In this document: piece by piece, positions 9,515-26,342 of the stretch | How the letters are laid out: every line of letters starts with the position of its first letter | Position numbering within the stretch: position 1 is the stretch's first letter | NCBI GenBank assembly: GCA_039799445.1 | Contig: JBDLSO010000001.1 | Coordinates: forward strand, 1-26,342 | DNA length: 26,342 bases | Direction of reading: 5' to 3' | DNA from: Candidatus Parcubacteria bacterium | Lineage (GTDB): Bacteria > Patescibacteriota > Minisyncoccia > Phycocordibacterales > UBA5272 | Position numbers and translations under genes: made by a program | Notes under the pieces: model-generated | What the model was told of the DNA's origin: nothing | Database searches by the model: none | Seen by the model: only the letters and a program-made list of their open reading frames with translations

Positions 9515-9543
9515 TTGATTTTTAAGACATTTTATGTTATAAT
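9515..9543 (+). promoter_or_regulatory. Sigma70 promoter for obgE
   Basis: TTGATT (9515-9520), 17-bp spacer, TATAAT (9538-9543) with extended -10 TG at 9535-9536. Confidence 0.8.
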
Positions 9544-10703: not shown

Positions 10704-12110
10704 TTATTTTTTACTAGCAATGATATCCTGAAAGAGTCCAGGATTGCCTGAACCTTTGCTTTCTTTCATTGATTGCCCGACGAAGAACATCAAGAGTTTG
10801 TCATTGCCAGCTACGTACTCTGCCCACTGAGTAGGATTTGCAGCTATAACACTATTCACAATCGCTCCAAGCGCATCAACATCGTTCTTTTGTATCAGGT
10901 TATTCTGCTCTGCGTACGTTCGTGGGTCAATATCGTTTTCAAGTAATATTGGTAGCATATCCTTGACTGCGCGCGAAGAAAGCTCCCCAGATAATGCCAT
11001 CTCTACTAACGTAACATAGTTTTCTATGCTCGGTAATTTGTATGTCGCTTCTTTACGAAGTAACCCAAGTATATCCGAAGTCAAATAGTTTGCAGCCAAT
11101 ACGACAAAATCTGTTTTTTGATTGTGCGATACTTTGTCAAAATATGCTGATATTTCTGTCTCGGACAAAAGTACTTCGATGGTTTCTGATTTGATACCGA
11201 TAGCAGCGAGACGACTGCGTTTCTGATTTGGTAACTCCGGCAAATCTTTTTTCATTTGTTCCAAATCAAACATACTGTGCAAGTATAGCTTTGGTAAATC
11301 AGGATCAGGGAAATAGCGATAATCATGCGAGTTTTCTTTCATGCGCTGACTAAATGTCACCTGCTTATTTTCATCCCAACCGCGTGTCTCTTGTACTATT
11401 TCTGCACCTCTGCCACTATCGAGTAATTCAGTATGTCTTTTGTATTCGTACTCAATACATTTCTCTACTGTTTTGAATGAGTTCAGATTTTTAATTTCGA
11501 CTTTGGTGCCTAGCTTGTTTGGATCTTTTGATACAGAAAAATTAACTTCGACACGCATTTGCCCCATTTCCATATTGGCATCAGATGCATCAAGTGCGCG
11601 CAGTATCATTTGAAGCTCACGCCCAAAACGACCAGCCTGCTCGGCGCTATGTATACACGCCTCGGTCACCAACTCCATCAGAGGTACTCCCGCACGATTA
11701 AAATCGACAAGAGTGAAAGGTCCCTGATCGTGTAGCGATTTTGCCGTATCTTCTTCCAAATGCACTCGAGTGATATCTACTCCAGATAGATTGCCTCCAG
11801 AGACAATAGGGAATTTGTATTGACTGATTTGATAGCCCTTTGGAATATCTGGGTAAAAATAATTTTTTCGATCAAACTCTGTAAAATCTGCTATATCTGC
11901 ACCGAGTGCAAGTCCTACTTGTACTACTTTTCGTATTGCCTCAAGATTGGCAACGGGCAACGTACCAGGTTCTGCCATACATACTGGGCAAATGAGTGTA
12001 TTTGGTGCTGCGTTATAAGGGTCATTTGCACAACCACACCACATTTTTGATTTAGTTTTAAGCTCGGCATGTATTTCAAGTCCGATAGTTATTTTGTATT
12101 CAGTACTCAT
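10704..12110 (-). CDS. gatB: Asp-tRNA(Asn)/Glu-tRNA(Gln) amidotransferase subunit B (468 aa)
   Basis: IGLEIHAEL, CPVCMAEPGTLP, FDRKNYFYPDIPKGYQISQ, RVHLEED, DFNRAGVPLME, VEIKNLNSF, DYRYFPDPDLP. Start set to MSTEYKITIG (12110), not the ORF-track 12158, because the family motif begins right there. Confidence 0.97.
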   Translation of the reverse strand: MSTEYKITIGLEIHAELKTKSKMWCGCANDPYNAAPNTLICPVCMAEPGTLPVANLEAIRKVVQVGLALGADIADFTEFDRKNYFYPDIPKGYQISQYKFPIVSGGNLSGVDITRVHLEEDTAKSLHDQGPFTLVDFNRAGVPLMELVTEACIHSAEQAGRFGRELQMILRALDASDANMEMGQMRVEVNFSVSKDPNKLGTKVEIKNLNSFKTVEKCIEYEYKRHTELLDSGRGAEIVQETRGWDENKQVTFSQRMKENSHDYRYFPDPDLPKLYLHSMFDLEQMKKDLPELPNQKRSRLAAIGIKSETIEVLLSETEISAYFDKVSHNQKTDFVVLAANYLTSDILGLLRKEATYKLPSIENYVTLVEMALSGELSSRAVKDMLPILLENDIDPRTYAEQNNLIQKNDVDALGAIVNSVIAANPTQWAEYVAGNDKLLMFFVGQSMKESKGSGNPGLFQDIIASKK

Positions 12111-12116
12111 GTATAC

Positions 12117-12125
12117 AGTATAGCA
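12117..12125 (-). promoter_or_regulatory. Extended -10 promoter for gatB (probably leaderless)
   Basis: Minus strand reads TGCTATACT-gtatac-ATG (6-nt gap). Confidence 0.7.
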
Positions 12126-12149
12126 TTTCAGATAGTTTTTTACAGCCCT

Positions 12150-12177
12150 TTGATACATGAAAAAACTACGCTATACT
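12150..12177 (+). promoter_or_regulatory. Sigma70-like promoter for gap, back-to-back with the gatB promoter
   Basis: TTGATA (12150-12155), 16 bp, TATACT (12172-12177), 22 nt before the gap ATG. Confidence 0.6.
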
Positions 12178-12199
12178 ATACGGTATAAATATATATTAT

Positions 12200-13243
12200 A
12201 TGGAACAACAGAAAAAAATTCGTGTCGCAATAAATGGTTTTGGCCGCATCGGAAGAGCTTTCTTTCGTATCGCACAGAATCATCCAGAGCTTGAAATAGT
12301 AGCACTCAATGACCTTGGAGATATCAAAAATCTAGCATATTTACTCAAACACGATACAGTATACAAAACAGCAGAGTTTTCGGTAGAAGCAATTGAAGGA
12401 GAAAAGGCTTCAATACGAGTAAATGGTCGTGACATTCGTTTCATAAGTCAACGCGAGCCGACATTACTTCCTTGGAACGAGCTTGATATAGATGTTGTTA
12501 TCGAGTGCACTGGACTTTTCACTGCATATGACAAAGCACAAGTACATATAAATGCTGGTGCAAAACGAGTTGTTATCTCGGCACCTGCCAAGGAGGGGGA
12601 TGATACTACTGTGCATGGCGAAACAATACTTATGGGAGTGAACGAAGACAAGTTTGGTACTTGCCAGATAACTTCAAACGCTTCTTGCACGACAAACGCT
12701 GCAAGTCCACTTATTGGTATACTCGATGCTGCTGTTGGTGTTGAAAAGGCAGTACTCTCTACCACGCACGCATATACTGCATCGCAGTCAATAGTAGACG
12801 GACCCAACAAAAAAGATTTCAGAGAGGGGAGAGCAGCTGCACAAAATATAGTACCATCGTCAACTGGTGCAGCTATTGCAGTCACCAAAGCATATCCGTC
12901 GTTGATTGGGCTATTTGACGGTATCTCGCTACGTGTCCCTGTACCAGCTGGATCTATTGTCGATGTAACCTTCATCTCAAAGAGACCAACTTCAAAAGAA
13001 GAGATTAATGATATTTTAATGAAGGCGTCGCAGTCGGCAGAATGGAAACACATTTTTGGTGCAACATATGAGCCGCTTGTGTCTAGCGATATTCAAGGTG
13101 CAGATAAAGCATCTATCGCAGATCTTGAAATGACTCGCGTTGTTGGTGGTAACTTGGTAAAAGTACTCGCATGGTATGACAATGAATATTCATATACGCA
13201 TACACTTGTAGCACATGCTATTAAGACAGGGCAAAGTATTTAG
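12200..13243 (+). CDS. gap: Type I glyceraldehyde-3-phosphate dehydrogenase
   Basis: INGFGRIGR, LNDL, VIECTG, catalytic ASCTTN, GRAAAQNIVPSSTGAA, WYDNE. Confidence 0.98.
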   Translation: MEQQKKIRVAINGFGRIGRAFFRIAQNHPELEIVALNDLGDIKNLAYLLKHDTVYKTAEFSVEAIEGEKASIRVNGRDIRFISQREPTLLPWNELDIDVVIECTGLFTAYDKAQVHINAGAKRVVISAPAKEGDDTTVHGETILMGVNEDKFGTCQITSNASCTTNAASPLIGILDAAVGVEKAVLSTTHAYTASQSIVDGPNKKDFREGRAAAQNIVPSSTGAAIAVTKAYPSLIGLFDGISLRVPVPAGSIVDVTFISKRPTSKEEINDILMKASQSAEWKHIFGATYEPLVSSDIQGADKASIADLEMTRVVGGNLVKVLAWYDNEYSYTHTLVAHAIKTGQSI

Positions 13244-13261
13244 TTGCAAACAACTAAATAC
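13236..13261. other. 11-bp hairpin overlapping the gap stop codon
   Basis: gtatttagttg-caaa-caactaaatac is a perfect inverted repeat containing the TAG at 13241-13243. Confidence 0.5.
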
Positions 13262-13288
13262 CGAATAGGGGATGTAGAATTTTGAATT

Positions 13289-13320
13289 AAAGAGCGGCGC
13301 ACTTCGTGCGCCGTTCTTTT
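13289..13320 (+). terminator. Intrinsic terminator for gap
   Basis: aaagagcggcgcac-ttc-gtgcgccgttcttt GC-rich stem (one G-U pair) ending in a T run. Confidence 0.8.
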
Positions 13321-13330
13321 GCTCACATAT

Positions 13331-13378
13331 CAAATAAAAGAAAACCCACCCATGAGGACGGATTTCCTCGGGTGGGTT
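13331..13378 (-). terminator. Intrinsic terminator for the small minus-strand ORF
   Basis: aacccaccc(at)gagga-cggatt-tcctc-gggtgggtt hairpin with a 2-nt bulge, followed on the minus strand by TTTTCTTTTATTT. Begins at the ORF stop codon. Confidence 0.75.
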
Positions 13379-13580
13379 ATTTTGGTGCAAGATTTTCTCT
13401 CACTACATTTTTGATGTATTTAGTTAGACTGAAGCAGAACAGAAGTGCACACAACGCTGCTATTACTTCATCTCCATCTGAGGCAGAAAGTGCCATAAAG
13501 CAACAATACCATGCTGCTAGCGTTGCCCACACAGATGAGCTTTCCCATAGCACTTTCTGCAAGTGCAAAATTTTCTTCAT
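13377..13580 (-). CDS. Small orphan membrane protein, 67 aa, two predicted TM helices
   Basis: MKKILHLQK...SVWATLAAWYCCFMALSA-SDGDE-VIAALCALLFCFSLTKYIK...APK. Flanked by a near-consensus promoter and its own terminator; GGGG ends 7 nt before the ATG. Alternative start at 13598. Confidence 0.65.
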   Translation of the reverse strand: MKKILHLQKVLWESSSVWATLAAWYCCFMALSASDGDEVIAALCALLFCFSLTKYIKNVVRENLAPK

Positions 13581-13628
13581 TTTTTTTCCCCGAACCATTG
13601 GGTCACACGATATGAACCCTTCTGTAAT

Positions 13629-13657
13629 AGTATATCACTTATATATACTATTGTCAA
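13629..13657 (-). promoter_or_regulatory. Near-consensus sigma70 promoter driving the small minus-strand ORF
   Basis: Minus strand reads TTGACA (13657-13652), 17 bp, TATACT (13634-13629), with extended -10 TG. Confidence 0.85.
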
Positions 13658-13683
13658 GTCTTTTCTCTTACACTTATACAGAG

Positions 13684-13689
13684 TACACT
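13684..13689 (+). promoter_or_regulatory. Possible -10 box for leaderless rpiB
   Basis: TACACT-atatac-ATG has the same 6-nt geometry as the TGCTATACT boxes but lacks the TG extension. Confidence 0.4.
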
Positions 13690-13695
13690 ATATAC

Positions 13696-14157
13696 ATGAA
13701 TATATATATTTCTTCCGACCATGCAGGCTTTGAACTCAAAAATACACTTGTAGATTTCATTTCATCACTTGGACACACACCGATAGATATGGGACCAGAG
13801 ACACTTATTGAAAGTGACGACTATCCAGATCTCATTGCACCACTTGCTGCACATATCTCAAAAAAAGCCTCTCAAGGCGTACACGAGTTTGGTATCATTT
13901 TGGGTGGCTCTGGACAAGGAGAGGCTATGGTCGCCAACAGATTTGCTGGCGTGCGTGCGGGGGTGCTCAGTTGTGATACATTAGAGCTAGTTGTGCTGTT
14001 GAGAGAACACAATGACGCCAATATTTTGTCACTTGGTGCACGCTTTATTTCAGAAGAGACAGCCAAACGAGCAGTACAATTATTTATAGAAACTCCTTTT
14101 TCTCATGACGAGAGACATACGAGACGTATCAAAGAGATAGATATGGAGTGTGCCTAA
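13696..14157 (+). CDS. rpiB: Ribose-5-phosphate isomerase B (153 aa)
   Basis: SDHAGFELK, GGSGQGE, ANR, HNDANILSLG, RH.RRI. The ORF-track start at 13306 crosses terminators and the opposite-strand gene; family homology starts at MNIYISSDHAG (13696). Confidence 0.93.
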   Translation: MNIYISSDHAGFELKNTLVDFISSLGHTPIDMGPETLIESDDYPDLIAPLAAHISKKASQGVHEFGIILGGSGQGEAMVANRFAGVRAGVLSCDTLELVVLLREHNDANILSLGARFISEETAKRAVQLFIETPFSHDERHTRRIKEIDMECA

Positions 14158-14175
14158 TCCTTTTGTGCGAATTTT

Positions 14176-14204
14176 TTGAAATTGATTGTTCTCGGGAATA
14201 GAAT
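14176..14204 (+). promoter_or_regulatory. Candidate sigma70 promoter for rpe
   Basis: TTGAAA (14176-14181), 17 bp, TAGAAT (14199-14204). Confidence 0.55.
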
Positions 14205-14281
14205 GCATGCAAACCCTACTACAAACAAACAATGACTCTATATTCTTTACAAAATACTACTTACTAGATTGTCCAATACAT

Positions 14282-14995
14282 ATGGAAGAACATACTACAT
14301 ACAATAAAATAGAATTTATACCAGCAGTACTTACTACTGACTTCCTGAAAATAAGCGAACTCGTATTACGTACTGGTAAAGCTAGCAAATGGATACAAAT
14401 AGATATATGCGATGGTGTATTTGTATCGACAGAAACCTGGCCATATGTACGTAAAGTACTACCAGTATTCAATGATGATTTTGAGCTGCCGAGTTGGGAC
14501 ACAATGAATTACGAAGCGGATTTGATGATTGCGAATCCAAGCCAGCATATAGACAATCTCAAAAATATAGGATTTAGTCGCGCGGTGATACATATAGGAA
14601 GTGAATCGGTAGCAAATCTACTGATTGCTGCTACGAAGCTTACTTCATATGATATTGAAGTTGGTGTGGGTATCAGTGTACATTCAGAACAATCCGAAGC
14701 TATAGAATTTTTGAAATCACTTGTTGATACAAATATCCCTCACTATATACAGATAATGGGAATAGAGAACCTAGGCGTGCAAGGACAGCCATTTTCAGAC
14801 CAATGCACAAAGCTCGTAGATACATACAAATCACTGTACCCAAACACTGTTATACAGATAGATGGCGCTGTGAACGAAAGCAATATCAAAGAGTTATATG
14901 ACGCTGGCGCAGATAGTTTTGTGCTTGGTTCATACCTATCGGGCTATGGAAGTGTATCCGATAAAATACAGACGCTAAAAAATTTGCTATACTAA
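14282..14995 (+). CDS. rpe: Ribulose-phosphate 3-epimerase family protein (divergent metal site)
   Basis: IPAVL, QIDICDGVFV, EADLMIANP, QIMGI...G.QGQPF, IQIDGAVN, GAD.FVLGS, in an rpiB/transketolase context. Start taken as MEEHTT (14282). Confidence 0.88.
   Translation: MEEHTTYNKIEFIPAVLTTDFLKISELVLRTGKASKWIQIDICDGVFVSTETWPYVRKVLPVFNDDFELPSWDTMNYEADLMIANPSQHIDNLKNIGFSRAVIHIGSESVANLLIAATKLTSYDIEVGVGISVHSEQSEAIEFLKSLVDTNIPHYIQIMGIENLGVQGQPFSDQCTKLVDTYKSLYPNTVIQIDGAVNESNIKELYDAGADSFVLGSYLSGYGSVSDKIQTLKNLLY
14985..14993 (+). promoter_or_regulatory. Extended -10 box embedded in the last codons of rpe, ahead of the transketolase N-half
   Basis: TGCTATACT-aatact-ATG(15000), formed by rpe codons ttg cta tac taa. 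Confidence 0.6.
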
Positions 14996-14999
14996 TACT

Positions 15000-15857
15000 A
15001 TGTTATTACCAGAAAAAGAATTATACATCACCGATAAAGCGTCACAGATACGTCAATCAATTATTGAAATGCTAGTTGAGGCAAAGTCAGGCCACACGGC
15101 AGGACCACTCGGTATGGCAGATGTGTTTGCGACATTATATTTTGATGTATTAAAGCATAAACCAACAGATCCAACTTGGTCAGAACGTGATCGAGTCATT
15201 TTGTCCAATGGACATATTTGCCCGGTTCTATATGCAACTATGGCACATAGTGGTTATTTTGATACATCTGAATTGCTTACATTACGCAAATTTGGGAGCA
15301 GGCTTCAAGGTCATCCACATCGCGAATGGCTACCAATGCTTGAAACATCGAGTGGGCCACTAGGGAGCGGACTTTCTCAAGCGATTGGTATGGCTCTCGC
15401 CGAGAGGATAGACAATGGACGTAGTAGTGATAAAAAGTTCTATTGTTTTATGGGAGATGGTGAACTCAACGAAGGTCAGGTTTGGGAAGCTTTTATGCAG
15501 GGAGGAAAAGAGAAGTTGCAAAATCTTACTGTTATTATAGACAGAAACAATATACAAATAGATGGATTCACAGAGGATATAATGCCACTTGAACCCCTCA
15601 AAGATAAATTCGAAAGTTTTGGCTGGCATGTAATAGAAGTAGATGGTCACAATATTGATGATATACAAAGGGGTTTTCGTACCGCACATGCAGTCTTTGA
15701 AAAACCGTCAATACTACTAGCTCATACTATACCAGGCAAAGGGGTAGAGGAATTCCAGAAAAATTATAAATGGCATGGTATGCCACCAAACAAAGAACAG
15801 GGAGCATTGGCATTGCAGGAATTACGAAGTATGAACGGAATCTTAGATATCGACTAA
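15000..15857 (+). CDS. tkt: Transketolase, N-terminal (TPP-binding) subunit
   Basis: SGHTAG.LG, RDRVILSNGH, GSRLQGHP, SSGPLGSG, TPP motif GDGELNEG...DRNNIQIDG, HTIPGKG, WHG. Confidence 0.95.
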   Translation: MLLPEKELYITDKASQIRQSIIEMLVEAKSGHTAGPLGMADVFATLYFDVLKHKPTDPTWSERDRVILSNGHICPVLYATMAHSGYFDTSELLTLRKFGSRLQGHPHREWLPMLETSSGPLGSGLSQAIGMALAERIDNGRSSDKKFYCFMGDGELNEGQVWEAFMQGGKEKLQNLTVIIDRNNIQIDGFTEDIMPLEPLKDKFESFGWHVIEVDGHNIDDIQRGFRTAHAVFEKPSILLAHTIPGKGVEEFQKNYKWHGMPPNKEQGALALQELRSMNGILDID

Positions 15858-15913
15858 ATACTGCAACTATATTATACTAATACATATACATTAGAATATA
15901 CATTATTTACAAT

Positions 15914-16162
15914 ATGAAAAATAAAAATATAATAAAAAACTCACTCATTATACTCTTTGCGCTTGTGTTATTGGCTGCCTTTCTATATTCAAAACTAGCA
16001 GAAAATGCAACTATCACAAAAACGCCTTCTTCAGACGCACGCACAGATATAAGTACAGCACCTGTATCAAATGATATAGCAGCGCCAAGCACACCAAGTT
16101 CTGATGTACTGACTCCAAAACTTAATTCAGGAACAACTCTTCCAGAACCAAAAAGAAATTAA
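15914..16162 (+). CDS. Hypothetical 82-aa membrane-anchored or exported S/T/P-rich protein
   Basis: Basic N-terminus, hydrophobic helix LIILFALVLLAAFLY, low-complexity tail with TPSSD twice; 3 nt before the next ORF. Confidence 0.7.
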   Translation: MKNKNIIKNSLIILFALVLLAAFLYSKLAENATITKTPSSDARTDISTAPVSNDIAAPSTPSSDVLTPKLNSGTTLPEPKRN

Positions 16163-16165
16163 TAT

Positions 16166-16621
16166 ATGAGATTATTTTCAGTGATCAATATAATAGTTGC
16201 AACTGGGCTTATTGGTGCATTTCTATTCGTAGGTCTCCCAGAAATTGCAAAAATTCATCCAGGTAGTCCAAATACTCATGCGAATACAAAAGTAAATGTA
16301 GAACAAAATGTACCAGAAGTAGCTAGCGAGGAACAAATTTTACTAGATAAATGCAACAGCTATGCGGCTTCGCAAGCATTTGCAAATACCACTGAGCTCA
16401 ATAACTTCATCGCTAGTTGCATAGCAGGAAATGAAACTGCAAAAATAAATGTGATACAAGCACCGTCTAACACTACTGACGTGGCTACATCAAGCATCAG
16501 TTCACCTCGTTTGTCTGCACAAGAATTGCAAGTGAAGTGTAATGAATTTATGTCCAGAGCAAAATTCGAATCAGAGAATGCAGCTGCAGCATTTCTTACA
16601 AATTGTTTAGCAGGAAAATAA
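16166..16621 (+). CDS. Hypothetical 151-aa exported protein with two C-x21-C modules
   Basis: N-terminal hydrophobic helix, two similar Cys-pair repeats, 3-nt and 4-nt gaps to its neighbours. Confidence 0.78.
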   Translation: MRLFSVINIIVATGLIGAFLFVGLPEIAKIHPGSPNTHANTKVNVEQNVPEVASEEQILLDKCNSYAASQAFANTTELNNFIASCIAGNETAKINVIQAPSNTTDVATSSISSPRLSAQELQVKCNEFMSRAKFESENAAAAFLTNCLAGK

Positions 16622-16625
16622 TACA

Positions 16626-17606
16626 ATGAATTTAAATGTACAATTATTGAGCAAAGATATAGAACAAGTTCCGATCCGAAATGGATTTGGCGAAGGATTA
16701 CTTCTGCTTGGTCAAAGCGATGAACGCATAGTTGCACTGTGTGCTGATTTGACTGAATCTACCAAAACAGATGCCTTTGCAAAAGCATTTCCAAATAGAT
16801 TTATCGAAATGGGTATCGCCGAACAATCCATGGCAAGTGTTGCTAGCGGTATGGCCGCAATGGGTAAAATACCATTTATAACTTCGTATGCAATGTTTAA
16901 TCCGGGCAGAAATTGGGAACAAATACGAACAACAATTTGCTATAACAATGTACCAGTCAAAATAGTCGGGGCTCATGCCGGTGTTTCCGTTGGACCAGAT
17001 GGTGGTACACATCAAGCAATAGAAGATATTGCTCTTATGCGTGTAGTGCCGCGTATGGTAGTGATAGTTCCATGCGATGCTATTGAAGCCCGAAAAGCAA
17101 CAATAGCTATCGGCAAAACCAATGACCCAACATATATAAGGCTTGCGCGTGAAAAAAGTGGAGTTATAACAACAGAAGAAACACCATTTGAAATAGGAAA
17201 GGCTCAAATATTTCATGAATCACCACTGTCTGGAGAAAAGAAAATAGGTATCATTGCATGTGGTCAACTTGTACATACCGCACTTCTAGCTGCTGCTGAA
17301 TTAGAAAAAGAGGGTGTAGAGGTTGGTGTTATGAATTTAGCTACAATCAAGCCGCTAGACACAGCTGCTGTGATTTCGTTTGCACAGAAGTATGGTCGCG
17401 TACTAACGGCAGAAGAGCATCAGGTCGCAGGTGGCATGGGTTCAGCAGTTGCAGAAGTATTGGCTGAGAATTATCCAGTACCTATGTCATTTGTAGGTAT
17501 TAGAGATGAATTCGGTCAATCAGGTACACCAAGTGAGCTGATGACACATTTCAAAATAGATTTTTCTGGAGTGCTAGAACAAGCTCAAATATTGCTCAAT
17601 AAATAA
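16626..17606 (+). CDS. tkt: Transketolase, C-terminal (pyrimidine-binding) subunit
   Basis: R.GFGEGL, ADLTEST, RFIEMGIAEQ, EQIR, HAGVSVGPDGGTHQ, PTYIRL.R, TIKPLD, EEHQ..GGMG, FGQSG. Confidence 0.95.
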   Translation: MNLNVQLLSKDIEQVPIRNGFGEGLLLLGQSDERIVALCADLTESTKTDAFAKAFPNRFIEMGIAEQSMASVASGMAAMGKIPFITSYAMFNPGRNWEQIRTTICYNNVPVKIVGAHAGVSVGPDGGTHQAIEDIALMRVVPRMVVIVPCDAIEARKATIAIGKTNDPTYIRLAREKSGVITTEETPFEIGKAQIFHESPLSGEKKIGIIACGQLVHTALLAAAELEKEGVEVGVMNLATIKPLDTAAVISFAQKYGRVLTAEEHQVAGGMGSAVAEVLAENYPVPMSFVGIRDEFGQSGTPSELMTHFKIDFSGVLEQAQILLNK

Positions 17607-17608
17607 TT

Positions 17609-18208
17609 ATGAAAAAAGAAGAATTAGAAGAGTTGTTTAGAGATGGTAAGATTACAGAGATTGTTGAAGAGGTCAAAAAATACCTTGATACAGGTGTAAT
17701 TGAATATGATACTATTCTCAATTATTTACTGGTAATAGAACAAAATATCTACCAGTATTTTGGAACTGATTTGGACTATCTGTTGGATAGACTCTATAGC
17801 GTGGGATATACTTATTTTCCTCAACTAACAAAAAAATACATTGATTACCTTCAAAACAAAAAGCAGGATACGATAACAGCATTTAATATTGTTAAAAAAG
17901 ACAAAGAAATAAAAGAAAAAATCGGACCTTATTTATATTATCTAATACTAAGTGATGGATATGAGTTTGAAAAAAAATACAAAATTGCTCTTGACTGCTT
18001 AAAAGCTGGTTCTGAACAGTCAACAATTTTATGGCAGAAGGAGTTCTTTGAGATGAATATTAAAAGACTAAAAAATAAAAATAATATCTTCTTGAAGATA
18101 TCAGATGAGCTAACAATTTATGCAAATTTTATTCTGTGGATTATACTTATTTTACTCATACCGTATTTTGGAAGTATTCTAATTAAAATAATTTTTAATA
18201 TCCAATAA
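17609..18208 (+). CDS. Hypothetical low-GC protein (199 aa) with a C-terminal TM helix
   Basis: Open frame filling the space between tkt-C and mraY (2-nt and 1-nt gaps); C-terminal hydrophobic stretch FILWIILILLIPYFGSILIKIIF; no family recognised. Confidence 0.75.
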   Translation: MKKEELEELFRDGKITEIVEEVKKYLDTGVIEYDTILNYLLVIEQNIYQYFGTDLDYLLDRLYSVGYTYFPQLTKKYIDYLQNKKQDTITAFNIVKKDKEIKEKIGPYLYYLILSDGYEFEKKYKIALDCLKAGSEQSTILWQKEFFEMNIKRLKNKNNIFLKISDELTIYANFILWIILILLIPYFGSILIKIIFNIQ

Positions 18209-18209
18209 T

Positions 18210-19262
18210 ATGTTTATATTTGAAGCTATCAAAATTTTTGTTCCAACTATTGTATCGTTTGGCTTCGGTATGCTTATCGCTCCGTATGTTGTACGTTTTC
18301 TGAGAGCAAAAAAGCTATGGAAAAAAGTCAATGTCAAACTAGCACTTGGTGGTGGGGAAGCGACTATATCAAGCAAACTGCACAATGACGAGGAAAAGAA
18401 AATACCGCGTATGGGAGGCACGGTCGTATGGCTGAGCGTGCTCTTTACCAGCCTTGTCTTTTGGCTTTTATCGAATTTTCTAGGTGGTATTCCTGAGCTT
18501 GATTTCATCAGTCGTAGTCAAACATGGTTACCACTTTTTACTATGCTTGTTGGTGCACTCATTGGACTTGTTGACGATTTTGCTGTGACTGGTACCTTTG
18601 GTTCATATGTTGGTGGTGGATTATCATTGAAACTTCGTATTCTACTTGTTTCTCTAATGTCGCTCATTCTTGGGTATTGGTTTTATTTCAAACTTGGAAT
18701 GAGTGTTATTGATATACCTTTTTATGGCGGACTGTACATTGGAATACTGATCATACCTTTTATGATACTGACTATGGTAGCAATATTTTCGGGCGGTATT
18801 ATCGATGGTATAGATGGGCTCTCTGGAAGTATTATGAGTTCTATGTTTGCAGCTTACGGTATGATAGCGGTATTCAATGCTCAAATAGACATAGCGGCAT
18901 TTTGTTTCGTGGTTGTTGGAGCGATACTCGCTTTTCTTTGGTACAATATTCCACCTGCTCAGTTTTATATGTCCGAAACAGGGATGCTTGCTCTCACGAC
19001 TTCACTGACTGTCGTTGCTTTTCTTACAGACGCAGTGATGCTTTTGCCTATTATTGCTTTTCCGCTTTTCACGGCTAGTGGTTCATCTATACTGCAAATC
19101 GCATCAAAAAAACTGCGTAAAGGTAAAAAGATATTTACAGTAGCCCCTGTACATAATCATTTCCAAGCAAATGGTATGGCAGGCTATACTGTCACAATGC
19201 GATACTGGATAGTTTCATTTATGTGTGCTTTAACTGGGGTGATACTTCACATCATTGGATAA
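18210..19262 (+). CDS. mraY: Phospho-N-acetylmuramoyl-pentapeptide transferase (MraY family, divergent)
   Basis: Polytopic membrane protein with P.MGG, GLVDD, DGIDGL, N.PPA.FYM, AP.H.H, directly upstream of ftsW-murG. Confidence 0.88.
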   Translation: MFIFEAIKIFVPTIVSFGFGMLIAPYVVRFLRAKKLWKKVNVKLALGGGEATISSKLHNDEEKKIPRMGGTVVWLSVLFTSLVFWLLSNFLGGIPELDFISRSQTWLPLFTMLVGALIGLVDDFAVTGTFGSYVGGGLSLKLRILLVSLMSLILGYWFYFKLGMSVIDIPFYGGLYIGILIIPFMILTMVAIFSGGIIDGIDGLSGSIMSSMFAAYGMIAVFNAQIDIAAFCFVVVGAILAFLWYNIPPAQFYMSETGMLALTTSLTVVAFLTDAVMLLPIIAFPLFTASGSSILQIASKKLRKGKKIFTVAPVHNHFQANGMAGYTVTMRYWIVSFMCALTGVILHIIG

Positions 19263-19268
19263 CAATAC

Positions 19269-20375
19269 ATGGTAAAAAAAATACAAAAAATAGATCGTGT
19301 ATTTCTCGGAATAATAGCAAGTATTCTCATTTTTGGGTTACTTATGTTTGGTTCTGCTGCGCTTGGTGTACTTGCCAAAAATGAGACAAAGTTTTACAGC
19401 ATATTATTGAATCAATTTGTATATGCATTACTTGGAGGACTGCTAGCACTTGGTATCGGTCTTTTTGTACATTATACACATTTCAAAAAGTACTCATTTC
19501 ATTTCTATATAATAACCTTATTATTAACAGCACTTGTTTTTGTACCAGGTATCGGCTTTGCTCATGGTGGTGCAAGCCGTTGGATACATATATTTAATTT
19601 TAGTTTACAGCCTTCTGAATTCTTGAAAATAGGAACTGTTCTATTCTTTGCAAATTGGCTTGCAACAAACAAAAAAAGACTTGGTGATGTAGCCTTTGGA
19701 CTAGTACCATTTTGTATCATCGCTGGAGTGCCATTTATACTACTACTGCTACAACCAGATACAGGGACTGGTGCAATTATTTTCTTATCGGCATTTGCGA
19801 TGTATATTGTAGCTGGTGCAAAGTGGCGTGACGTTGGTATTGTATTTATCGCAGGAATACTTGGGCTTATTATACTTGCAACAATGCGACCCTATGTAAT
19901 GGATCGTATCAAGACATTCATAGATCCAAGTCATGACTCTACTGGTTCATCGTATCAATTGCAACAATCACTCATAGCGATTGGTAGTGGTGGTACATTT
20001 GGACGTGGATATGGTCAAAGTATACAAAAATTCAATTTTCTACCAGAGCCAATAGGCGACTCAATATTTGCAGTTGTTGGTGAAGAGCTTGGTATTATTG
20101 GAGGAAGTATTATATTGCTTTTATTTACAGCGCTGGCTATAAGAGGAATGAAGTTAGCGCGTATGGTAAAAGACTCTTTTGGTTCTTATTTAATTGTTGG
20201 TGTGACTTCTATATATTTGATTCAAGCATTTATGAACATTGCTTCTATGCTTGGTATATTTCCACTCACTGGTGTACCTCTTCCATTTATCTCTCATGGA
20301 GGTACAGCTCTTTTGACTGCACTCTTTGGTGTTGGTATAATACTAAACATATCGAAGTATCGTTCGAATATCTAA
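19269..20375 (+). CDS. ftsW: SEDS-family peptidoglycan polymerase FtsW/RodA
   Basis: GASRWI, QPSEFLK, QPDTG, YQLQQSLIAIGSGG..G.G.G.S.QK, LPEPIGDSIFAVVGEELG (catalytic Asp region intact), G.PLPFISHGG. Confidence 0.93.
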   Translation: MVKKIQKIDRVFLGIIASILIFGLLMFGSAALGVLAKNETKFYSILLNQFVYALLGGLLALGIGLFVHYTHFKKYSFHFYIITLLLTALVFVPGIGFAHGGASRWIHIFNFSLQPSEFLKIGTVLFFANWLATNKKRLGDVAFGLVPFCIIAGVPFILLLLQPDTGTGAIIFLSAFAMYIVAGAKWRDVGIVFIAGILGLIILATMRPYVMDRIKTFIDPSHDSTGSSYQLQQSLIAIGSGGTFGRGYGQSIQKFNFLPEPIGDSIFAVVGEELGIIGGSIILLLFTALAIRGMKLARMVKDSFGSYLIVGVTSIYLIQAFMNIASMLGIFPLTGVPLPFISHGGTALLTALFGVGIILNISKYRSNI

Positions 20376-20379
20376 CATT

Positions 20380-21507
20380 ATGAAAATTGCATTTACTGGA
20401 GATAGTACAAGTGGGCAATTTTATCCTATTATTGCCATTGCTGAGCGCGTACATGAACGTGCAGAAGCAAGGCATCTTGTAGCTCCCAAACTATACTTTA
20501 TAGCACCAAATGAATACAGTGCCGTACATCTTTTCAATAATCAAATCACTTTTGTAAAAACAACTGGATCAGAGAAAAGTCCGCACGGTGAAGCTGTTTC
20601 TTTTATTCAATACGTAAAATCATTTGTCAGTATCATACGAGCAACAACTCAACTCTTTTTCATATTTCCTGATGTATTACTTTCCAAAGGTGGTACTACT
20701 TCTTTTCCAATACTAGTCGCTGCACGAATACTTGGTATACCTGTGATGATACACGAGACTGACACCATACCAAGTGGTTCAAATCTCTGGGCAGCCAAAT
20801 TTGCAAAACGCATTGGTGTAGCATACAAAACCGCAGCAGCACTTTTCCCAGCCGAGAAAACAGCATATGTGGGGCAACCAATACGAAAAGAAATAGAGTA
20901 CCCACTCACCGAAGGTGCTCGTGAATATTTACACCTTGAAGCAAATGTGCCTGTGATACTTGTACTTGGTGGCACAGGTGAGGGAAATGTGATAAATGAT
21001 ACTATCGTCAACTCACTACCATTCTTACTTGATTCGTATCAAATAATTCACCAAACAGGCAAAGATCAGATACAAACAATGCGTGAGATTTCAAAGGTAA
21101 TATTGAAAGACAATCCTCATGCAAGTAGATATCATCCATTTAGTTATTTGGACGATTTGGCGGTGCGTATGGCGGCTGGCTCTGCTTCGATAGCAATATC
21201 CCAAGCTGGTTCTGTCATGTTTGAATTAGCTAGCTGGCAAGTACCTGCGATAGTGATACCTGTAACTCATTCAAAAGATGATCATCAGAAAAAAAATGCA
21301 TTTGCCTATGCACGCATTGGTGGTGCAGAAGTGATTGAAGAAGCGAATCTGACTCCACACTTGCTAGTGAACGAAATCAATCGTCTGATGCAAAATCCAC
21401 AAATTCGAAACGAAATGAAAGAAGGCGCGAGGGAGTTCCACAAAACAGATGCAGCTAGCAAAATAGCAGATGGATTACTCGATATTGCACTTACTCATGA
21501 GCAATAG
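20380..21507 (+). CDS. murG: MurG-like GT-B glycosyltransferase with degenerate signature motifs
   Basis: MurG position and layout (FYPIIA, KGG..S.P, IP..IHE, G.PIR, HQTG, E.A....P...IP, HQ..NA), but the G-loops and the conserved His are altered (see findings). Confidence 0.85.
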   Translation: MKIAFTGDSTSGQFYPIIAIAERVHERAEARHLVAPKLYFIAPNEYSAVHLFNNQITFVKTTGSEKSPHGEAVSFIQYVKSFVSIIRATTQLFFIFPDVLLSKGGTTSFPILVAARILGIPVMIHETDTIPSGSNLWAAKFAKRIGVAYKTAAALFPAEKTAYVGQPIRKEIEYPLTEGAREYLHLEANVPVILVLGGTGEGNVINDTIVNSLPFLLDSYQIIHQTGKDQIQTMREISKVILKDNPHASRYHPFSYLDDLAVRMAAGSASIAISQAGSVMFELASWQVPAIVIPVTHSKDDHQKKNAFAYARIGGAEVIEEANLTPHLLVNEINRLMQNPQIRNEMKEGAREFHKTDAASKIADGLLDIALTHEQ

Positions 21508-21550
21508 TCACTTATATTTTGAATAAAGTATATGAGCATATTGTCATATA

Positions 21551-21559
21551 TGCTATACT
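21551..21559 (+). promoter_or_regulatory. Extended -10 promoter for gltX (probably leaderless)
   Basis: TGCTATACT-ggatat-ATG(21566). Confidence 0.7.
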
Positions 21560-21565
21560 GGATAT

Positions 21566-23074
21566 ATGTTAAATACAAAAGTAGTCACCAGATTTGCACC
21601 AAGTCCAACAGGGTTAATGCATGTTGGTGGTGTTCGTACTGCACTCTATGCATATCTATATGCAAAGAAAATGAATGGCACTTTTATACTTCGTATCGAA
21701 GATACTGACAAAGAGCGAGAGATGGAGGGGAGTATAGATCATATAATGCAGTCACTACGCTATATACTTGCGGCTGACGAGACACTAGTCTCTACTGACC
21801 CGTGGGACTTTGGACCAAATAAGACTGGACCTTTTGGATCATGTGTGCAGTCTGAGAGACTCGATATATATGTAGAGTATGCACAAAGATTATTTGATGC
21901 AGGTTTTGCATATACAGACCCATATACAAAAGAAGAGATTGAAATATTTAGAACAGATGCTGAACTCGCAAAGAAACCTTTTTTGTTTAGAAATCACCGC
22001 CCAACAGAATTCAGTGCTACATGGGACAAAAACAAGCCACTTCGTTTCAAAGTAGCGCATATAGAAAGAACAGAGTGGGTAGATGAAGTACGCGGCACTC
22101 TCTCTGCTGGACCAGAAGCACTCGACGACTTTATACTAATCAAAAGCGACGGCTACCCAACATATAATTTGTGCCACATTATCGACGATATAGAGATGGG
22201 GGTGACACATGTAATGCGTGGCGAAGAATTCATCGCATCAACTCCAAAATTCATAGCTGTATACAAAGCATTGCAAGAAATATTTCCAGAGAAAAATATA
22301 CAGATTCCAGTATTTGTCACACTTCCTCCTATACTTGGAGCAACTGGTACAAAAAAGCTATCGAAACGAGACGGTGCCAAAGACGTACTTGAATATCATA
22401 CTGAAGGCTATTTACCAGCAGCACTTGCCAACTATCTTGCGTTACAAGGCTGGAATCCAGGTGGAGAACAAGAGATATTTACTATGAGTGAGCTCATTGA
22501 ATTATTCGATATATCTCGGATACAAAAGTCAGGAGCAAGGTGGAATGAAGACAAGCTGTTGTGGGTAAACAAAGAACATATCAAACTACTCACCTCAGAA
22601 GAGCAATCAATTAAAATTATAGAAAAACTACCAGAATCAATACTCACTCACACTGAATTTGATCTGAGATTCAAAAAAGTATTACCACTCATTATAGAGC
22701 GTATATCGGTTTTTGAAGATGTATCAACTCTTATAGAGCAGGGTGATATTGAGTACTATTTTAATGCACCGAAACTTTTAGACAAAAATCTCTTTCATTG
22801 GAAGGGCATTGTAGACCCTACAGCAACAGTCCTTCGACTTCAAAAAACAAAAGAAGTTGTAGAGAGCGCCAAGTCGTCTGATTTTGATTCACCTGAATCA
22901 ACAAAGACTCTACTACACGATATTACCGAGCAGGAGGGTCGGGGAGAGATTTTGTGGCCACTTCGCACAGCGCTTTCAGCCAAAGAAAAATCAACCGATC
23001 CATTTACAATTATGTATATTATTGGCAAAGAAGAAGTAATACAGCGAATACAAAACGCAATCAACACTATATAG
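21566..23074 (+). CDS. gltX: Glutamate--tRNA ligase (probably non-discriminating)
   Basis: RFAPSPTG, HIGH-like HVGG, LRIEDTD, KSDGYPTY, HVMRGEE, KMSKS-like KLSKR, LWPLR.ALS. Confidence 0.97.
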   Translation: MLNTKVVTRFAPSPTGLMHVGGVRTALYAYLYAKKMNGTFILRIEDTDKEREMEGSIDHIMQSLRYILAADETLVSTDPWDFGPNKTGPFGSCVQSERLDIYVEYAQRLFDAGFAYTDPYTKEEIEIFRTDAELAKKPFLFRNHRPTEFSATWDKNKPLRFKVAHIERTEWVDEVRGTLSAGPEALDDFILIKSDGYPTYNLCHIIDDIEMGVTHVMRGEEFIASTPKFIAVYKALQEIFPEKNIQIPVFVTLPPILGATGTKKLSKRDGAKDVLEYHTEGYLPAALANYLALQGWNPGGEQEIFTMSELIELFDISRIQKSGARWNEDKLLWVNKEHIKLLTSEEQSIKIIEKLPESILTHTEFDLRFKKVLPLIIERISVFEDVSTLIEQGDIEYYFNAPKLLDKNLFHWKGIVDPTATVLRLQKTKEVVESAKSSDFDSPESTKTLLHDITEQEGRGEILWPLRTALSAKEKSTDPFTIMYIIGKEEVIQRIQNAINTI

Positions 23075-23075
23075 T

Positions 23076-24371
23076 ATGCGATCTCAACCGAAAAAAAACT
23101 ATGCTCAATTCATAGCACTACTCTCTGTATATAGTGTATTTTCTCTGACTGTTGCTCACGCTGGTATAGTAGAAGACCTCAAAGAAAAAATTAACAATGC
23201 AGGTGATCAGGTAAAAAACATCGAAAAAGAAATTGCCGCATACAACGAGCAACTCAAAAAAACACAAGCAGAGAAAAATACACTCAACAGCGCAATCAAG
23301 ACGCTTGATATCAACAAACAAATTGTTACCAAAGATATTACACTTACTAAAACAAAAATAGTGGGTGCAAATGAAACAATCGAAGAGATAAACACTGGTA
23401 TACAGAAACTCGAAGCAAATATCAGTACAAGTAAATTATATTTAAGAAAATCATTACAAAATCTAGCACTCGACGACAGCCTTGCAAACTCTGGGTTGAT
23501 AGCAACTATGCTTGGTTCAGATTCTATATCAGAAGCTGTAGACAGAGCGTCGACACTAGCAAATTTTCAACGTAGCATGCTCACTCATATAAATGATATA
23601 CGTGACAACAAGCAAGATCTTCTGAGTGTACAACAAGTCAAGACAGAACAACGCAATGAACTACTCAATCTCAACCAAGAGCTCATCGCCAAACAACGTA
23701 TACTTGCAGATGCTGCAGCACAAAAAGCAAGCTTATTGAAAACAACAAAAAACAAAGAAGCCAATTATCAAGCTGAACTCAAAAAAAGACAAGAAACCAA
23801 AAAGAAGCTTGAGCAAGAAATGCTTGCGTTTGAAAACGAACTCAAAGTAGCAATTGATCCAAATACACTTCCAAAAACAGGAAAAGGTGTACTCGGATAC
23901 CCTGTTTCAAAAGTAACAATCACACAATATTTTGGCAACACTGCCTTTGCTAGTAAAAATGCACAAGTATATAACGGTGGTGGTCACAATGGTGTAGACT
24001 TTGGTGTGTCTACTGGCAACCGTATACTCTCAGCTGCAAGTGGTGTAGTACAAGGTACTGGTGACACTGATACTGCGTGCAGGGGTGCTTCATATGGCAA
24101 ATGGGTGCTAATACGCCACAACAACGGTTTATCGACCCTATATGCCCATTTATCGGCTATTTCAGTCTCTTCTGGGCAAGCTGTAGAGCGTGGTGGGGTG
24201 ATTGGGCTTTCAGGAAATACTGGGTACTCGACAGGGCCACATTTGCATTTTACTGTTTTTGCAAGTAAAGCGGTGTCAATAGTCAACAGACAATCAAAAG
24301 CATGTGGCACAATGATGACACTTCCGGTGAGTCCAACCAACGGGTATCTCAATCCACTTTCTTACTTCTAA
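23076..24371 (+). CDS. Exported coiled-coil protein with a C-terminal M23 (LytM) metallopeptidase domain
   Basis: Signal peptide ending in AHA, long coiled coil, ITQYFG, intact Zn ligands HNGVD and GPHLHF, YGKWVLIRH.NG..TLYAHL, NPL. Confidence 0.9.
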   Translation: MRSQPKKNYAQFIALLSVYSVFSLTVAHAGIVEDLKEKINNAGDQVKNIEKEIAAYNEQLKKTQAEKNTLNSAIKTLDINKQIVTKDITLTKTKIVGANETIEEINTGIQKLEANISTSKLYLRKSLQNLALDDSLANSGLIATMLGSDSISEAVDRASTLANFQRSMLTHINDIRDNKQDLLSVQQVKTEQRNELLNLNQELIAKQRILADAAAQKASLLKTTKNKEANYQAELKKRQETKKKLEQEMLAFENELKVAIDPNTLPKTGKGVLGYPVSKVTITQYFGNTAFASKNAQVYNGGGHNGVDFGVSTGNRILSAASGVVQGTGDTDTACRGASYGKWVLIRHNNGLSTLYAHLSAISVSSGQAVERGGVIGLSGNTGYSTGPHLHFTVFASKAVSIVNRQSKACGTMMTLPVSPTNGYLNPLSYF

Positions 24372-24388
24372 AATATACATTGCAAATG

Positions 24389-24397
24389 TGCTATACT
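24389..24397 (+). promoter_or_regulatory. Extended -10 promoter for the LOG gene
   Basis: TGCTATACT-gcactgtat-ATG(24407), 9-nt gap. Confidence 0.62.
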
Positions 24398-24406
24398 GCA
24401 CTGTAT

Positions 24407-25132
24407 ATGGATAATACAATAAAAAACATGACTTTGCCTCATTCGCTTGATGATATCAAAAACTCTTGTGCTGCAGTATACGGCGGAGATGGGGAACTAA
24501 TAGAGATTTGTAGTATTGCCAAAGAACTAGAACAAGGCATTGATGCAGTAAGCGCTCATCCACGTGTCGCGACTATATACGGCTCCGCAAGACTGGGGGC
24601 TGATCATCCAGCCTGCGTTGCTGTCGAAGAACTTGCGTATAGACTAGTCAATGAAGCTGGCTACGCTATTATGACTGGTGGTGCCGGAGGTATTATGGCA
24701 GCAGGCAATCATGGTGCTAATCGTGCAGGAGGTGTTTCTCTTGGTTCAACCATTAGACTCAATCATGAACAACACACCAACCCAGATGTGACCCAAGCTA
24801 TACCTTTTGAATATTTCTTTACTAGAAAAACTGTACTTCGTTATGGTAGTGAATGTGCGATATTTTGTACAGGTGGTTTTGGTACATTCGATGAACTATT
24901 TGAATTACTGACACTACTTCAAACCAACAAGATCAAAAAGATACCAGTGATACTCTTTGGTACCGAGTTTTGGAAACCACTCGACGACTACATACGAGCA
25001 ACACTGCTCGCAGAATTTGCAACTATTGAAAGTAGCGATACCGAGCTCTATGTTATTACTGACAACATAGATCTTGTTGTCGAAGTAGCTAAGGCAGCCC
25101 CAACCAAAGAATCAGGTATGATCAATGAGTAA
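24407..25132 (+). CDS. LOG-family (TIGR00730-like) nucleotide phosphoribohydrolase
   Basis: TIYGSAR, TGG..GIM.AGN.GA, YFFTRK, GGFGTFDELFE (canonical PGGxGTxxE, here P>T), IPVILFG.EFW. Start moved from 24302, which overlaps the M23 gene, to 24407. Confidence 0.88.
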   Translation: MDNTIKNMTLPHSLDDIKNSCAAVYGGDGELIEICSIAKELEQGIDAVSAHPRVATIYGSARLGADHPACVAVEELAYRLVNEAGYAIMTGGAGGIMAAGNHGANRAGGVSLGSTIRLNHEQHTNPDVTQAIPFEYFFTRKTVLRYGSECAIFCTGGFGTFDELFELLTLLQTNKIKKIPVILFGTEFWKPLDDYIRATLLAEFATIESSDTELYVITDNIDLVVEVAKAAPTKESGMINE

Positions 25133-25190
25133 TGTGCGTATATCTTGGCTCATCTTATATATTCTCCATTTTTTGAAATAAATCAACCTG

Positions 25191-25199
25191 TGTTATTCT
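25191..25199 (+). promoter_or_regulatory. Extended -10-like promoter for the EVE gene (probably leaderless)
   Basis: TGTTATTCT-agatac-ATG(25206). Confidence 0.55.
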
Positions 25200-25205
25200 A
25201 GATAC

Positions 25206-25679
25206 ATGAACTATTGGCTACTGAAATCCGAAGCTTCGTGCTACTCGATAGACGATATGCACAAAGACACAAATACATGGTGGAGTGGAGTACGCAACTA
25301 TCAGGCGCGTAATTATATGAAGCAAATGTCAGTTGGTGACTTGTGTCTTTTTTATCATTCAAACGGCACGCAATCAGCCCCTACGGGAGTATATGGCGTA
25401 GTACAAGTCAGCAAAGCCGCGCAGGCAGATACCACTGCCCAAAATCCAAATGACGAACACTTTGATCCAAAAAGCACAGTCCAAAATCCCATTTGGGAAT
25501 GTGTAGAGGTGTCTTACCTGACTCACTTGAAGCAGCCTGTATTTCTTGCCGATATCAAACTTGACCCACGACTCACTGGCATCATAGTCGCCTCCAAAGG
25601 AAGTAGACTTTCGGTGCAGCCTGTCTCCCGAACACATTTTGAATATATTGTAGGGGAGTTGGGGGAAACGATACTCTAA
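25206..25679 (+). CDS. EVE-domain protein (PUA-like; THYN1-type)
   Basis: YWLLKSE, W.GVRNYQARNYM..M..GD..LFYHS, D.....P...HFDPKS....P.W, L...GSRLSVQPV. Confidence 0.93.
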   Translation: MNYWLLKSEASCYSIDDMHKDTNTWWSGVRNYQARNYMKQMSVGDLCLFYHSNGTQSAPTGVYGVVQVSKAAQADTTAQNPNDEHFDPKSTVQNPIWECVEVSYLTHLKQPVFLADIKLDPRLTGIIVASKGSRLSVQPVSRTHFEYIVGELGETIL

Positions 25680-25680
25680 A

Positions 25681-25689
25681 TGCTATACT
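25681..25689 (+). promoter_or_regulatory. Extended -10 promoter for the MmeI-like gene
   Basis: TGCTATACT-gattagt-ATG(25697), starting 2 nt after the EVE stop codon. Confidence 0.68.
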
Positions 25690-25696
25690 GATTAGT

Positions 25697-26342
25697 ATGA
25701 TTAGTAAAAATGAAATCAGAAACAGAGCGAGAGCCTTTGCAACAGAATGGCAGGACGAAACAAGTGAGGATGCAGAAGCAAAAAGTTTTTGGGACAGCTT
25801 CTTTGAAGTGTTTGGTGTCTCTCGTAGAAGAATTGGTAGTTTTGAACATAAAGTCAAAAAAATAAACGGTGCAGACGGATATATAGATGTACTCTGGAAG
25901 GGGGTGCTCTTGTGTGAGCATAAATCAAAAGGTAAGGACTTGGACAAAGCATTCACTCAAGCCAAAGATTATCTACCAGGACTGTCGGACGCGGAGCTAC
26001 CTCGCTACATAATCGTATCAGATTTTGAAAAAATGAGATTGCTTGATCTAGAAACACAAAAAGAAGAGAGTTTCTTAGTTGCTGATTTACACAAACACAT
26101 TGACTCATTTGGTTTTATTTCAGGGTACACGATTGAGGACTACAAAGAGGAAGAAGCTGCCAGTATATACGCCGCCAAATTACTTGCAGACTTTCATAAT
26201 GAAATCATCAAAACAGGATACAATGGTCACGATCTTGAAGTATTCCTCGTACGAGTACTGTTCTGCCTCTTTGCCGACGACACGGGTATATTTGATAAAA
26301 ATCATTTCAAAGGATATATACAAAAAAGACTAAGCAAAGACG
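25697..26342 (+). CDS. MmeI-like type IIL/IIG restriction-modification enzyme, N-terminal nuclease region, 3'-truncated
   Basis: Not in the ORF track because it has no stop in the window. Hand translation: MISKNEIRNRARAFATEWQDETSEDAEAKSFWDSFFEVFGVSRRR...GYIDVLWKGVLLCEHKSKGKDLDKAFTQAKDY...ELPRYIIVSDF...GHDLEVFLVRVLFCLFADDTGIF. This has a PD-(D/E)xK motif (D..EHK) and the LFCLFA(E/D)DTG segment typical of the MmeI family. Confidence 0.88.
   Translation, partial: MISKNEIRNRARAFATEWQDETSEDAEAKSFWDSFFEVFGVSRRRIGSFEHKVKKINGADGYIDVLWKGVLLCEHKSKGKDLDKAFTQAKDYLPGLSDAELPRYIIVSDFEKMRLLDLETQKEESFLVADLHKHIDSFGFISGYTIEDYKEEEAASIYAAKLLADFHNEIIKTGYNGHDLEVFLVRVLFCLFADDTGIFDKNHFKGYIQKRLSKD

Follow-up and report, generated by a model that had tools for sequence, protein, structure and literature searches.

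Boxes and genes at the locus

The stretch of DNA analysed here (the window) comprises the first 26,342 nt of contig JBDLSO010000001.1 in the assembly (GenBank GCA_039799445.1) of a Candidatus Parcubacteria bacterium, an ultra-small freshwater bacterium of the Patescibacteria/Parcubacteria type. Seven of its roughly 22 genes carry, a few nucleotides ahead of the start codon, the 9-mer TGCTATACT or a variant of it. Exact copies precede gatB, the gene for the N-terminal subunit of transketolase (tkt-N), gltX, a LOG-family gene and an MmeI-like gene, while an EVE-domain gene has the variant TGTTATTCT and rpiB has a TACACT hexamer without the TG (Table 1). We give a probability of roughly 0.8 to the joint reading that this recurring box is the housekeeping promoter, of the extended -10 type, and that about 30% of the genes in the genome are leaderless, with transcription starts placed by promoter geometry.

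A preliminary description of this DNA had set the five exact copies at 6 nt (gatB, tkt-N, gltX), 7 nt (MmeI-like) and 9 nt (LOG) from their start codons, and the EVE and rpiB sites at 6 nt; all of these gaps are confirmed. It had also weighed the five copies against about 0.3 expected by chance; in 100 dinucleotide-preserving shuffles of the window the mean was 0.21 and the maximum one copy, and no shuffle reached five. The five sites share an 11-nt core alone, and their flanks are dissimilar.

Pfam matches bear out the identities given to the genes. The ATGs next to the boxes are taken to be the true starts because the N-terminal domains of these genes align from the first few residues (residues 2-14 in the Pfam alignments). 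For the LOG-family gene the start at 24407 is preferred over that at 24302, from which the coding sequence would share 70 nt with the upstream M23 peptidase gene; the LOG-family gene is likely to have a leader of 0-4 nt. The window also encodes a complete primary sigma-70-type factor, expected to be the protein that reads these boxes.

Table 1. Boxes, genes and other features. Coordinates refer to the window, or to another contig of the assembly where one is named (C4 to C38). CDS, coding sequence; PWM, position weight matrix; SD, Shine-Dalgarno sequence.
Feature	Coordinates	Strand	Remarks
TGCTATACT extended -10 box of gatB	12117..12125	-	6 nt from ATG at 12110; PWM score 12.6
gatB CDS, predicted leaderless	10704..12110	-	GatB_N aligned from residue 8, E = 6.5e-105
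TACACT -10 hexamer without TG	13684..13689	+	6 nt from rpiB ATG at 13696
rpiB CDS, predicted leaderless, weaker box	13696..14157	+	RpiB domain beginning at ATG 13696
TGCTATACT box of tkt-N	14985..14993	+	6 nt from ATG at 15000; PWM score 12.8
tkt-N CDS, predicted leaderless	15000..15857	+	Pfam
TGCTATACT box of gltX	21551..21559	+	6 nt from ATG at 21566; PWM score 13.6
gltX CDS, predicted leaderless	21566..23074	+	Pfam
TGCTATACT box of LOG-family gene	24389..24397	+	9 nt from ATG at 24407; PWM score 12.9
LOG / lysine-decarboxylase-like CDS	24407..25132	+	Pfam
TGTTATTCT variant box of EVE gene	25191..25199	+	6 nt from ATG at 25206; PWM score 9.7
EVE-domain protein CDS, predicted leaderless	25206..25679	+	Pfam
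TGCTATACT box of MmeI-like gene	25681..25689	+	7 nt from ATG at 25697; PWM score 12.6
MmeI-like CDS, continuing beyond the window, predicted leaderless or with 1-2 nt leader	25697..26342	+	Pfam
Contrast: box TACGCTATACT	12167..12177	+	22 nt from gap (GAPDH) ATG at 12200; predicted leader ~15 nt, no SD
Contrast: box TATGTTATAAT	9533..9543	+	66 nt from obg ATG at 9610; predicted leadered mRNA, no SD
Primary sigma-70-type factor	8057..9451	+	regions 1.1, 1.2, 2, 3 and 4 complete
Close same-strand neighbours in the window	8055/8057, 16162/16166, 17606/17609, 18208/18210, 23074/23076		
SD-bearing genes, examples	C11:814-1716, C6:8036-8851, C30:4222-4875, C10:9716-10372, C16:9793-10368		
SD-bearing genes, further examples	C25:6855-7277, C38:5061-5375, C9:1691-2800, C4:16120-16692		

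Other promoter-like sequences lie in the window. The strong box AGTGATATACT (13629-13639, minus strand; score 11.6) has an exact TTGACA at 17-nt spacing and is directed into a cassette of small open reading frames (ORFs) between gap and rpiB; in contrast to the leaderless promoters, it is leadered and has a -35 box. Boxes scoring 10.0-11.6 also occur within coding regions, at 7726-7736 (+), 12713-12723 (+) and 11282-11292 (-), with no adjoining start codon of a long ORF, and these could represent internal or antisense promoters, or matches by chance.

A motif at a fixed distance from start codons

The genome assembly amounts to 602,844 nt in 63 contigs, with 38.5% GC, and is rated 92% complete. 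A simple caller of our own, combining ORFs with a codon score, gave 613 genes, of which 574 have complete 5' ends. TGCTATACT occurs 71 times in this genome, and 25 of these copies stand exactly 6 nt from the opening ATG of an ORF of 60 codons or more. The more general hexamer TANNNT is found at the same gap before 116 of the 574 leftmost starts, where about 8 would be expected from the frequency at 2,010 internal in-frame ATGs (a 15-fold excess), and when all candidate starts are counted it precedes 165 ATGs at a gap of 6 nt against 31 at a gap of 5 nt. A sharp peak at 6-7 nt, which the preliminary description had predicted, is present genome-wide.

The logo reads T(-17) n T(-15) G(-14) n TATA(C/A)T, followed by a discriminator close to ATATAT and the ATG, with T(-1) in 70% of sites. 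Its -35 zone is weak, reaching only T 0.49, T 0.41 and G 0.30 over 163 gap-6 sites, in keeping with the earlier remark that most of the boxes lack a -35. With a weight matrix, the 11-nt box (TnTGnTATACT) is detected 6-9 nt from the start of 169 of the 574 genes (29%), and 135 of these sites (80%) have TG at -15/-14. A residual gap-6 peak among the remaining genes adds about a dozen, for a total of ~29-31%. The proposal that about a third of the genes are leaderless is borne out to the extent that this fraction has an abutting box, from which the transcription starts are deduced.

The commonest hexamer is TATACT, which accounts for 46% (51/111) of the unbiased TANNNT-N6-ATG starts and 63% (106/169) of the matrix-selected ones; the share of TATAAT is ~10%. 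TATACT-N6-ATG is found 88 times in this genome and at most 48 times in each of 40 relatives, including genomes whose overall leaderless signal is stronger (G013, for example, has 25). The TATACT flavour, which had been called lineage-specific, is a genus-level trait partly common to one sister genus.

Promoter or ribosome-binding site?

Could the box be read by the ribosome rather than by RNA polymerase? It might be a non-SD ribosome-binding signal on leadered mRNAs (the GeneMarkS-2 'group B' situation): its short, fixed distance from starts is typical of ribosome-binding sites, and a 16S rRNA without a normal anti-SD makes the use of another signal conceivable. The distribution of the box speaks otherwise. 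It is present at 41% of divergent genes, 51% of genes with a same-strand spacer of 41-100 nt and 35% of those with a spacer of 16-40 nt, but at only 2-4% of genes that overlap the upstream gene or lie at most 15 nt from it, the operon-internal genes that would be neediest of a ribosome-binding site. A strong box (score at least 8.6, at most 120 nt upstream) also stands ahead of 17 of the 27 tRNA genes, in most cases at 9-26 nt from the mature 5' end; this evidence is positional, and because untranslated genes carry the box too it is regarded as a promoter rather than a ribosome-binding site. The motif matches the sigma-70 extended -10 consensus, including the TG, and it is not complementary to the 16S 3' tail, for which no complementary k-mer is specifically enriched or positioned. 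A ribosomal signal is therefore very improbable, and the earlier identification of the box as a TGn-TAnnnT extended -10 promoter gains from its scarcity before operon-internal genes and its presence before tRNA genes.

An origin by chance, from base composition or as remnants of a dispersed repeat has in its favour that the genome is AT-rich and that TA-rich motifs are common in it. The shuffles, none of which reaches five copies, and the gap-6 peak 15-fold above internal ATGs stand against it, as do the differing flanks of sites that have only the 11-nt core in common. Other genomes, moreover, keep the arrangement at orthologous genes, with hexamers that differ: in 11 further Patescibacteria metagenome-assembled genomes (MAGs) the gltX orthologue has TGnTAnnnT exactly 6 nt from the ATG, the hexamer being TAAAAT, TAGAAT or similar, and the best gltX matches (at most 57% identity) are to MAGs labelled Lloydbacteria, Paceibacteria and Nomurabacteria. 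Such an origin is refuted by the shuffles, the gap-6 peak and the conservation at gltX orthologues.

From promoter to predicted leaderless mRNA

Transcription by RNA polymerase usually begins 7 nt downstream of the -10 hexamer, on a purine that follows a pyrimidine. The spacing found here is canonical for a sigma-70 holoenzyme: the hexamer spans -12 to -7, position -1 is a T and +1 an A, and transcription is predicted to start on the A of the ATG. The last T of the box lies 6 nt (less often 7-9 nt) from the ATG of ~30% of the genes and of roughly 40-50% of the transcription units. In the mechanism that we propose, AUG would form the 5' end of their mRNAs, preceded by 1-4 additional bases where the gap is 7-9 nt, and they would be translated as leaderless mRNAs. 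The remaining genes are operon-internal cistrons, mostly 1-5 nt past the preceding stop codon, or leadered first genes. The exact transcription start, initiation of the 70S type on the leaderless mRNAs and reinitiation at downstream cistrons are what we infer from this geometry.

Several points weigh against this reading. The gene calls and start choices were made with our own caller instead of a validated gene finder; leftmost starts and ORF-free counts already show the gap-6 peak. No public RNA run was found to contain this DNA, and four metatranscriptomes, chosen by a related protein, gave only conserved scraps below 90% identity that come from other organisms, and no molecule ends. Two of the boxes in the window are inside or just past an upstream gene: that of tkt-N is within the final codons of an rpe-like gene, 4 nt from its stop, and that of the MmeI-like gene begins 2 nt past the EVE stop codon, so leadered read-through transcripts may coexist with leaderless ones. 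At 60 of the 169 sites the gap is 7-9 nt, and leaders of 1-4 nt may result. Finally, ~22-29 genes have a textbook SD despite the missing anti-SD.

The read-through and the longer gaps are also what would be expected if the boxes were real promoters whose leaderless form is minor or conditional, most expression coming as leadered mRNAs from upstream promoters or read-through, or if transcription started a few bases upstream and gave very short leaders. This seems unlikely, since the modal gap of 6 nt together with T(-1) and A(+1) sets the canonical start on the A of the ATG. Half of the strong intergenic boxes abut an ATG (112 of the 225 outside coding bodies have one at a gap of 6-9 nt, compared with 6 of the 115 inside coding regions), and the box is frequent at divergent genes, which same-strand read-through from upstream does not reach. 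Where a box adjoins the start codon, that codon is ATG in 96% of cases, compared with 79% in coupled genes; this bias is the expected signature of a ribosome that recognises a 5'-terminal start codon. Leaderless transcription from extended -10 promoters is the reading that we retain.

The ribosome and the remaining genes

The sole 16S gene of the assembly lies outside the window (contig C4, 18800-20333, minus strand) and aligns over its whole length to the Rfam small-subunit rRNA model with Infernal. Inspection of its 3' end, which the preliminary description had recommended, shows that the anti-SD is absent: the end is GGAUUAAUUCAAUG in place of the consensus GGAUCACCUCCUUU, and the CCUCC core is gone. 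The ribosome is consistent with the leaderless picture because its 16S rRNA has no such core. Upstream of the genes, SD 4-mers show no enrichment (38 against 34 in a control zone), and G makes up 5-14% of the bases at -12 to -1, again without enrichment. Ribosomal protein uL1 (PF00687) was not found in the 92%-complete assembly by a search that was positive in 14 of 14 control genomes, which in an incomplete assembly is not proof of its loss; bS21 has a 19-bit match, at best sub-threshold, and bS1 is short (382 aa).

Genes without an abutting promoter are A-rich and G-poor upstream, have no SD and show U(-1) in 63% of cases, so they must start by SD-independent routes. The commonest spacing between same-strand neighbours is +1 to +5 nt (66 of 420 pairs), while the usual overlaps of -4 or -1 are found in 13 pairs. 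The +1 to +5 spacing, examples of which occur in the window (Table 1), suggests termination-reinitiation coupling in the absence of an SD.

In every class of gene, leaderless, coupled and leadered, 63-70% of start codons follow a T at -1, as do 53% of those of G095, an anti-SD-positive genome. At leaderless genes it fits the rule of a pyrimidine at -1 and a purine at +1 of the transcription start; at coupled genes it must be a preference at the level of translation, possibly, and here we speculate, an extended pairing with the initiator tRNA.

Two further adaptations were considered and rejected. A replacement 'neo-SD' pairing with the new 16S tail might be read into the 23 occurrences of AATTAA against 4, but 13 other AT-only 6-mers rank above this word, its position is not fixed, and its count partly reflects TAA stop codons. 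IF3 (PF00707, PF05198) was not found in the assembly, neither as IF3_N nor as IF3_C; 39 of 40 relatives have IF3_C, which makes this an assembly gap and not a lineage trait, and loss of IF3 as an adaptation to leaderless mRNAs is rejected.

An SD-bearing minority

AGGAG or GGAGG stands 5-10 nt before the ATG 27 times, against 11 in the control zone. The SD-bearing genes are GC-richer than the others (0.42 against 0.39) and mostly encode small proteins of unknown function, although dCTP-deaminase-like, cold-shock-domain and NUDIX proteins are among the products alongside several unknowns (examples in Table 1). A TTGAC -35 box and a leader of 15-80 nt are found at 7-8 of 22 of them. These genes are possibly acquired cassettes.

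Relatives and the probable order of events

All 17 of the 16S 3' ends that are readable in the same family and order lack CCUCC, whereas 40 of 50 in a phylum-wide sample keep the GGATCACCTCCTTT anti-SD. The leaderless layout is more widely distributed. TGNTANNNT-N6-ATG occurs 119 times in this genome against 35 for the reversed control, a 3.4-fold ratio, and this genome is among the five densest of 103. Across 40 genomes of the order this ratio has a median of 2.9, and across the 62 that were tabulated out of a 100-genome sample of the phylum one of 2.4; the phylum genomes that keep the anti-SD have a median of 2.5. One family, with a ratio of ~1, provides a baseline. In G095 (400 kb), which belongs to another class and keeps its anti-SD, a gap-6 peak at 67 of 391 genes coexists with SD use (98 against 32). 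The idea that the leaderless layout is a consequence of anti-SD loss is rejected, since the excess is found in anti-SD-keeping genomes too, G095 among them. The layout is therefore phylum-wide and broader than the loss of the anti-SD, which it probably predates.

A model in which the clade has built a fully SD-independent translation economy on top of phylum-wide leaderless use could have merit, although we hold it only tentatively and at rather less than even odds. Ribosomes, probably in the 70S form, would capture first cistrons as 5'-terminal AUGs, and downstream cistrons 1-5 nt past a stop codon, with U(-1) and an A-rich upstream region, would be started by reinitiation. The anti-SD could then have been lost because leaderless and SD-poor starts were already common, and the GC-richer genes with a -35, a leader and an SD would be foreign or recently acquired cassettes whose SD does not pair with the host ribosome. 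The model draws support from G095, in which the anti-SD, a gap-6 peak and SD use are found together.

Implications

The annotation of start sites and promoters in Patescibacteria MAGs hinges on awareness that many genes probably have neither a 5' untranslated region nor an SD. In this genome, 50 promoter-adjoining ATGs are not the leftmost possible start, and extension of these ORFs by a gene caller would create false N-termini. The analysis joins two facts left unconnected in the papers searched, the published loss of the anti-SD in a Parcubacteria subgroup and a leaderless layout that is phylum-wide, which together suggest a route by which a bacterium can lose SD pairing. For genetic work in the group, the TnTGnTATACT-N6-ATG consensus is a ready-made expression signal.

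No new mechanism is involved: the mechanism is ordinary, and what we found no published description of is its use in this lineage or its combination with anti-SD loss. A literature search returned no paper that pairs 'leaderless' with Parcubacteria and few that pair it with Patescibacteria or the Candidate Phyla Radiation, which cite it in passing.

Comparison with known systems

Extended -10 promoters (TRTGn-TATAAT) are familiar from E. coli and Gram-positive bacteria. The promoter described here has the same features, with TG one base upstream of a TAnnnT hexamer (80% of sites), a frequent T(-17) and a -35 that is weak or absent, and it also stands ahead of non-coding genes. It differs in its hexamer, TATACT (46-63%) in place of TATAAT (~10%), a peculiarity at the genus level.

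SD-independent initiation is known from Bacteroidota (GeneMarkS-2 'group B'), with an A-rich, Kozak-like context in Flavobacterium. The non-leaderless genes of this genome are likewise A-rich and G-poor upstream without an SD. Bacteroidota keep the anti-SD and have few leaderless genes, whereas here the anti-SD is lost, ~30% of genes are predicted to be leaderless and U(-1) is unusually common (63%).

The promoter layout comes close to GeneMarkS-2 'group C', in which 25-50% of operons have a Pribnow box 6-8 nt from the start and which comprises mainly Actinobacteria and Deinococcus-Thermus, for example Mycobacterium tuberculosis, Streptomyces and Deinococcus deserti (PMC6028130); a map of transcription start sites is available for M. 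tuberculosis (PMC3898074). As in that group, the -10 motif is localised, its distance from first-gene starts and the fraction of operons concerned are alike, and it is confined to first genes and absent operon-internally. Unlike in group C, where the other genes use an SD and the 16S rRNA keeps its anti-SD, SDs are not enriched on the other genes here and the anti-SD is gone; the promoter, moreover, is of the extended TGn type with TATACT as its commonest hexamer. Patescibacteria and Parcubacteria are not among the group C lineages named in that work (PMC6028130).

On the ribosome side, the closest counterpart is the Parcubacteria subgroup without anti-SD and uL1 described by Tsurumaki et al. 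(RNA 2022; PMC9297842). The present genome resembles it in a 16S rRNA without CCUCC(U), in uL1 not being found, in a sub-threshold bS21 and a bS1 of 382 aa, and its taxon fits. That paper, in which the word 'leaderless' is absent, treats the ribosome alone (PMC9297842) and does not extend to the mRNA and promoter side described here.

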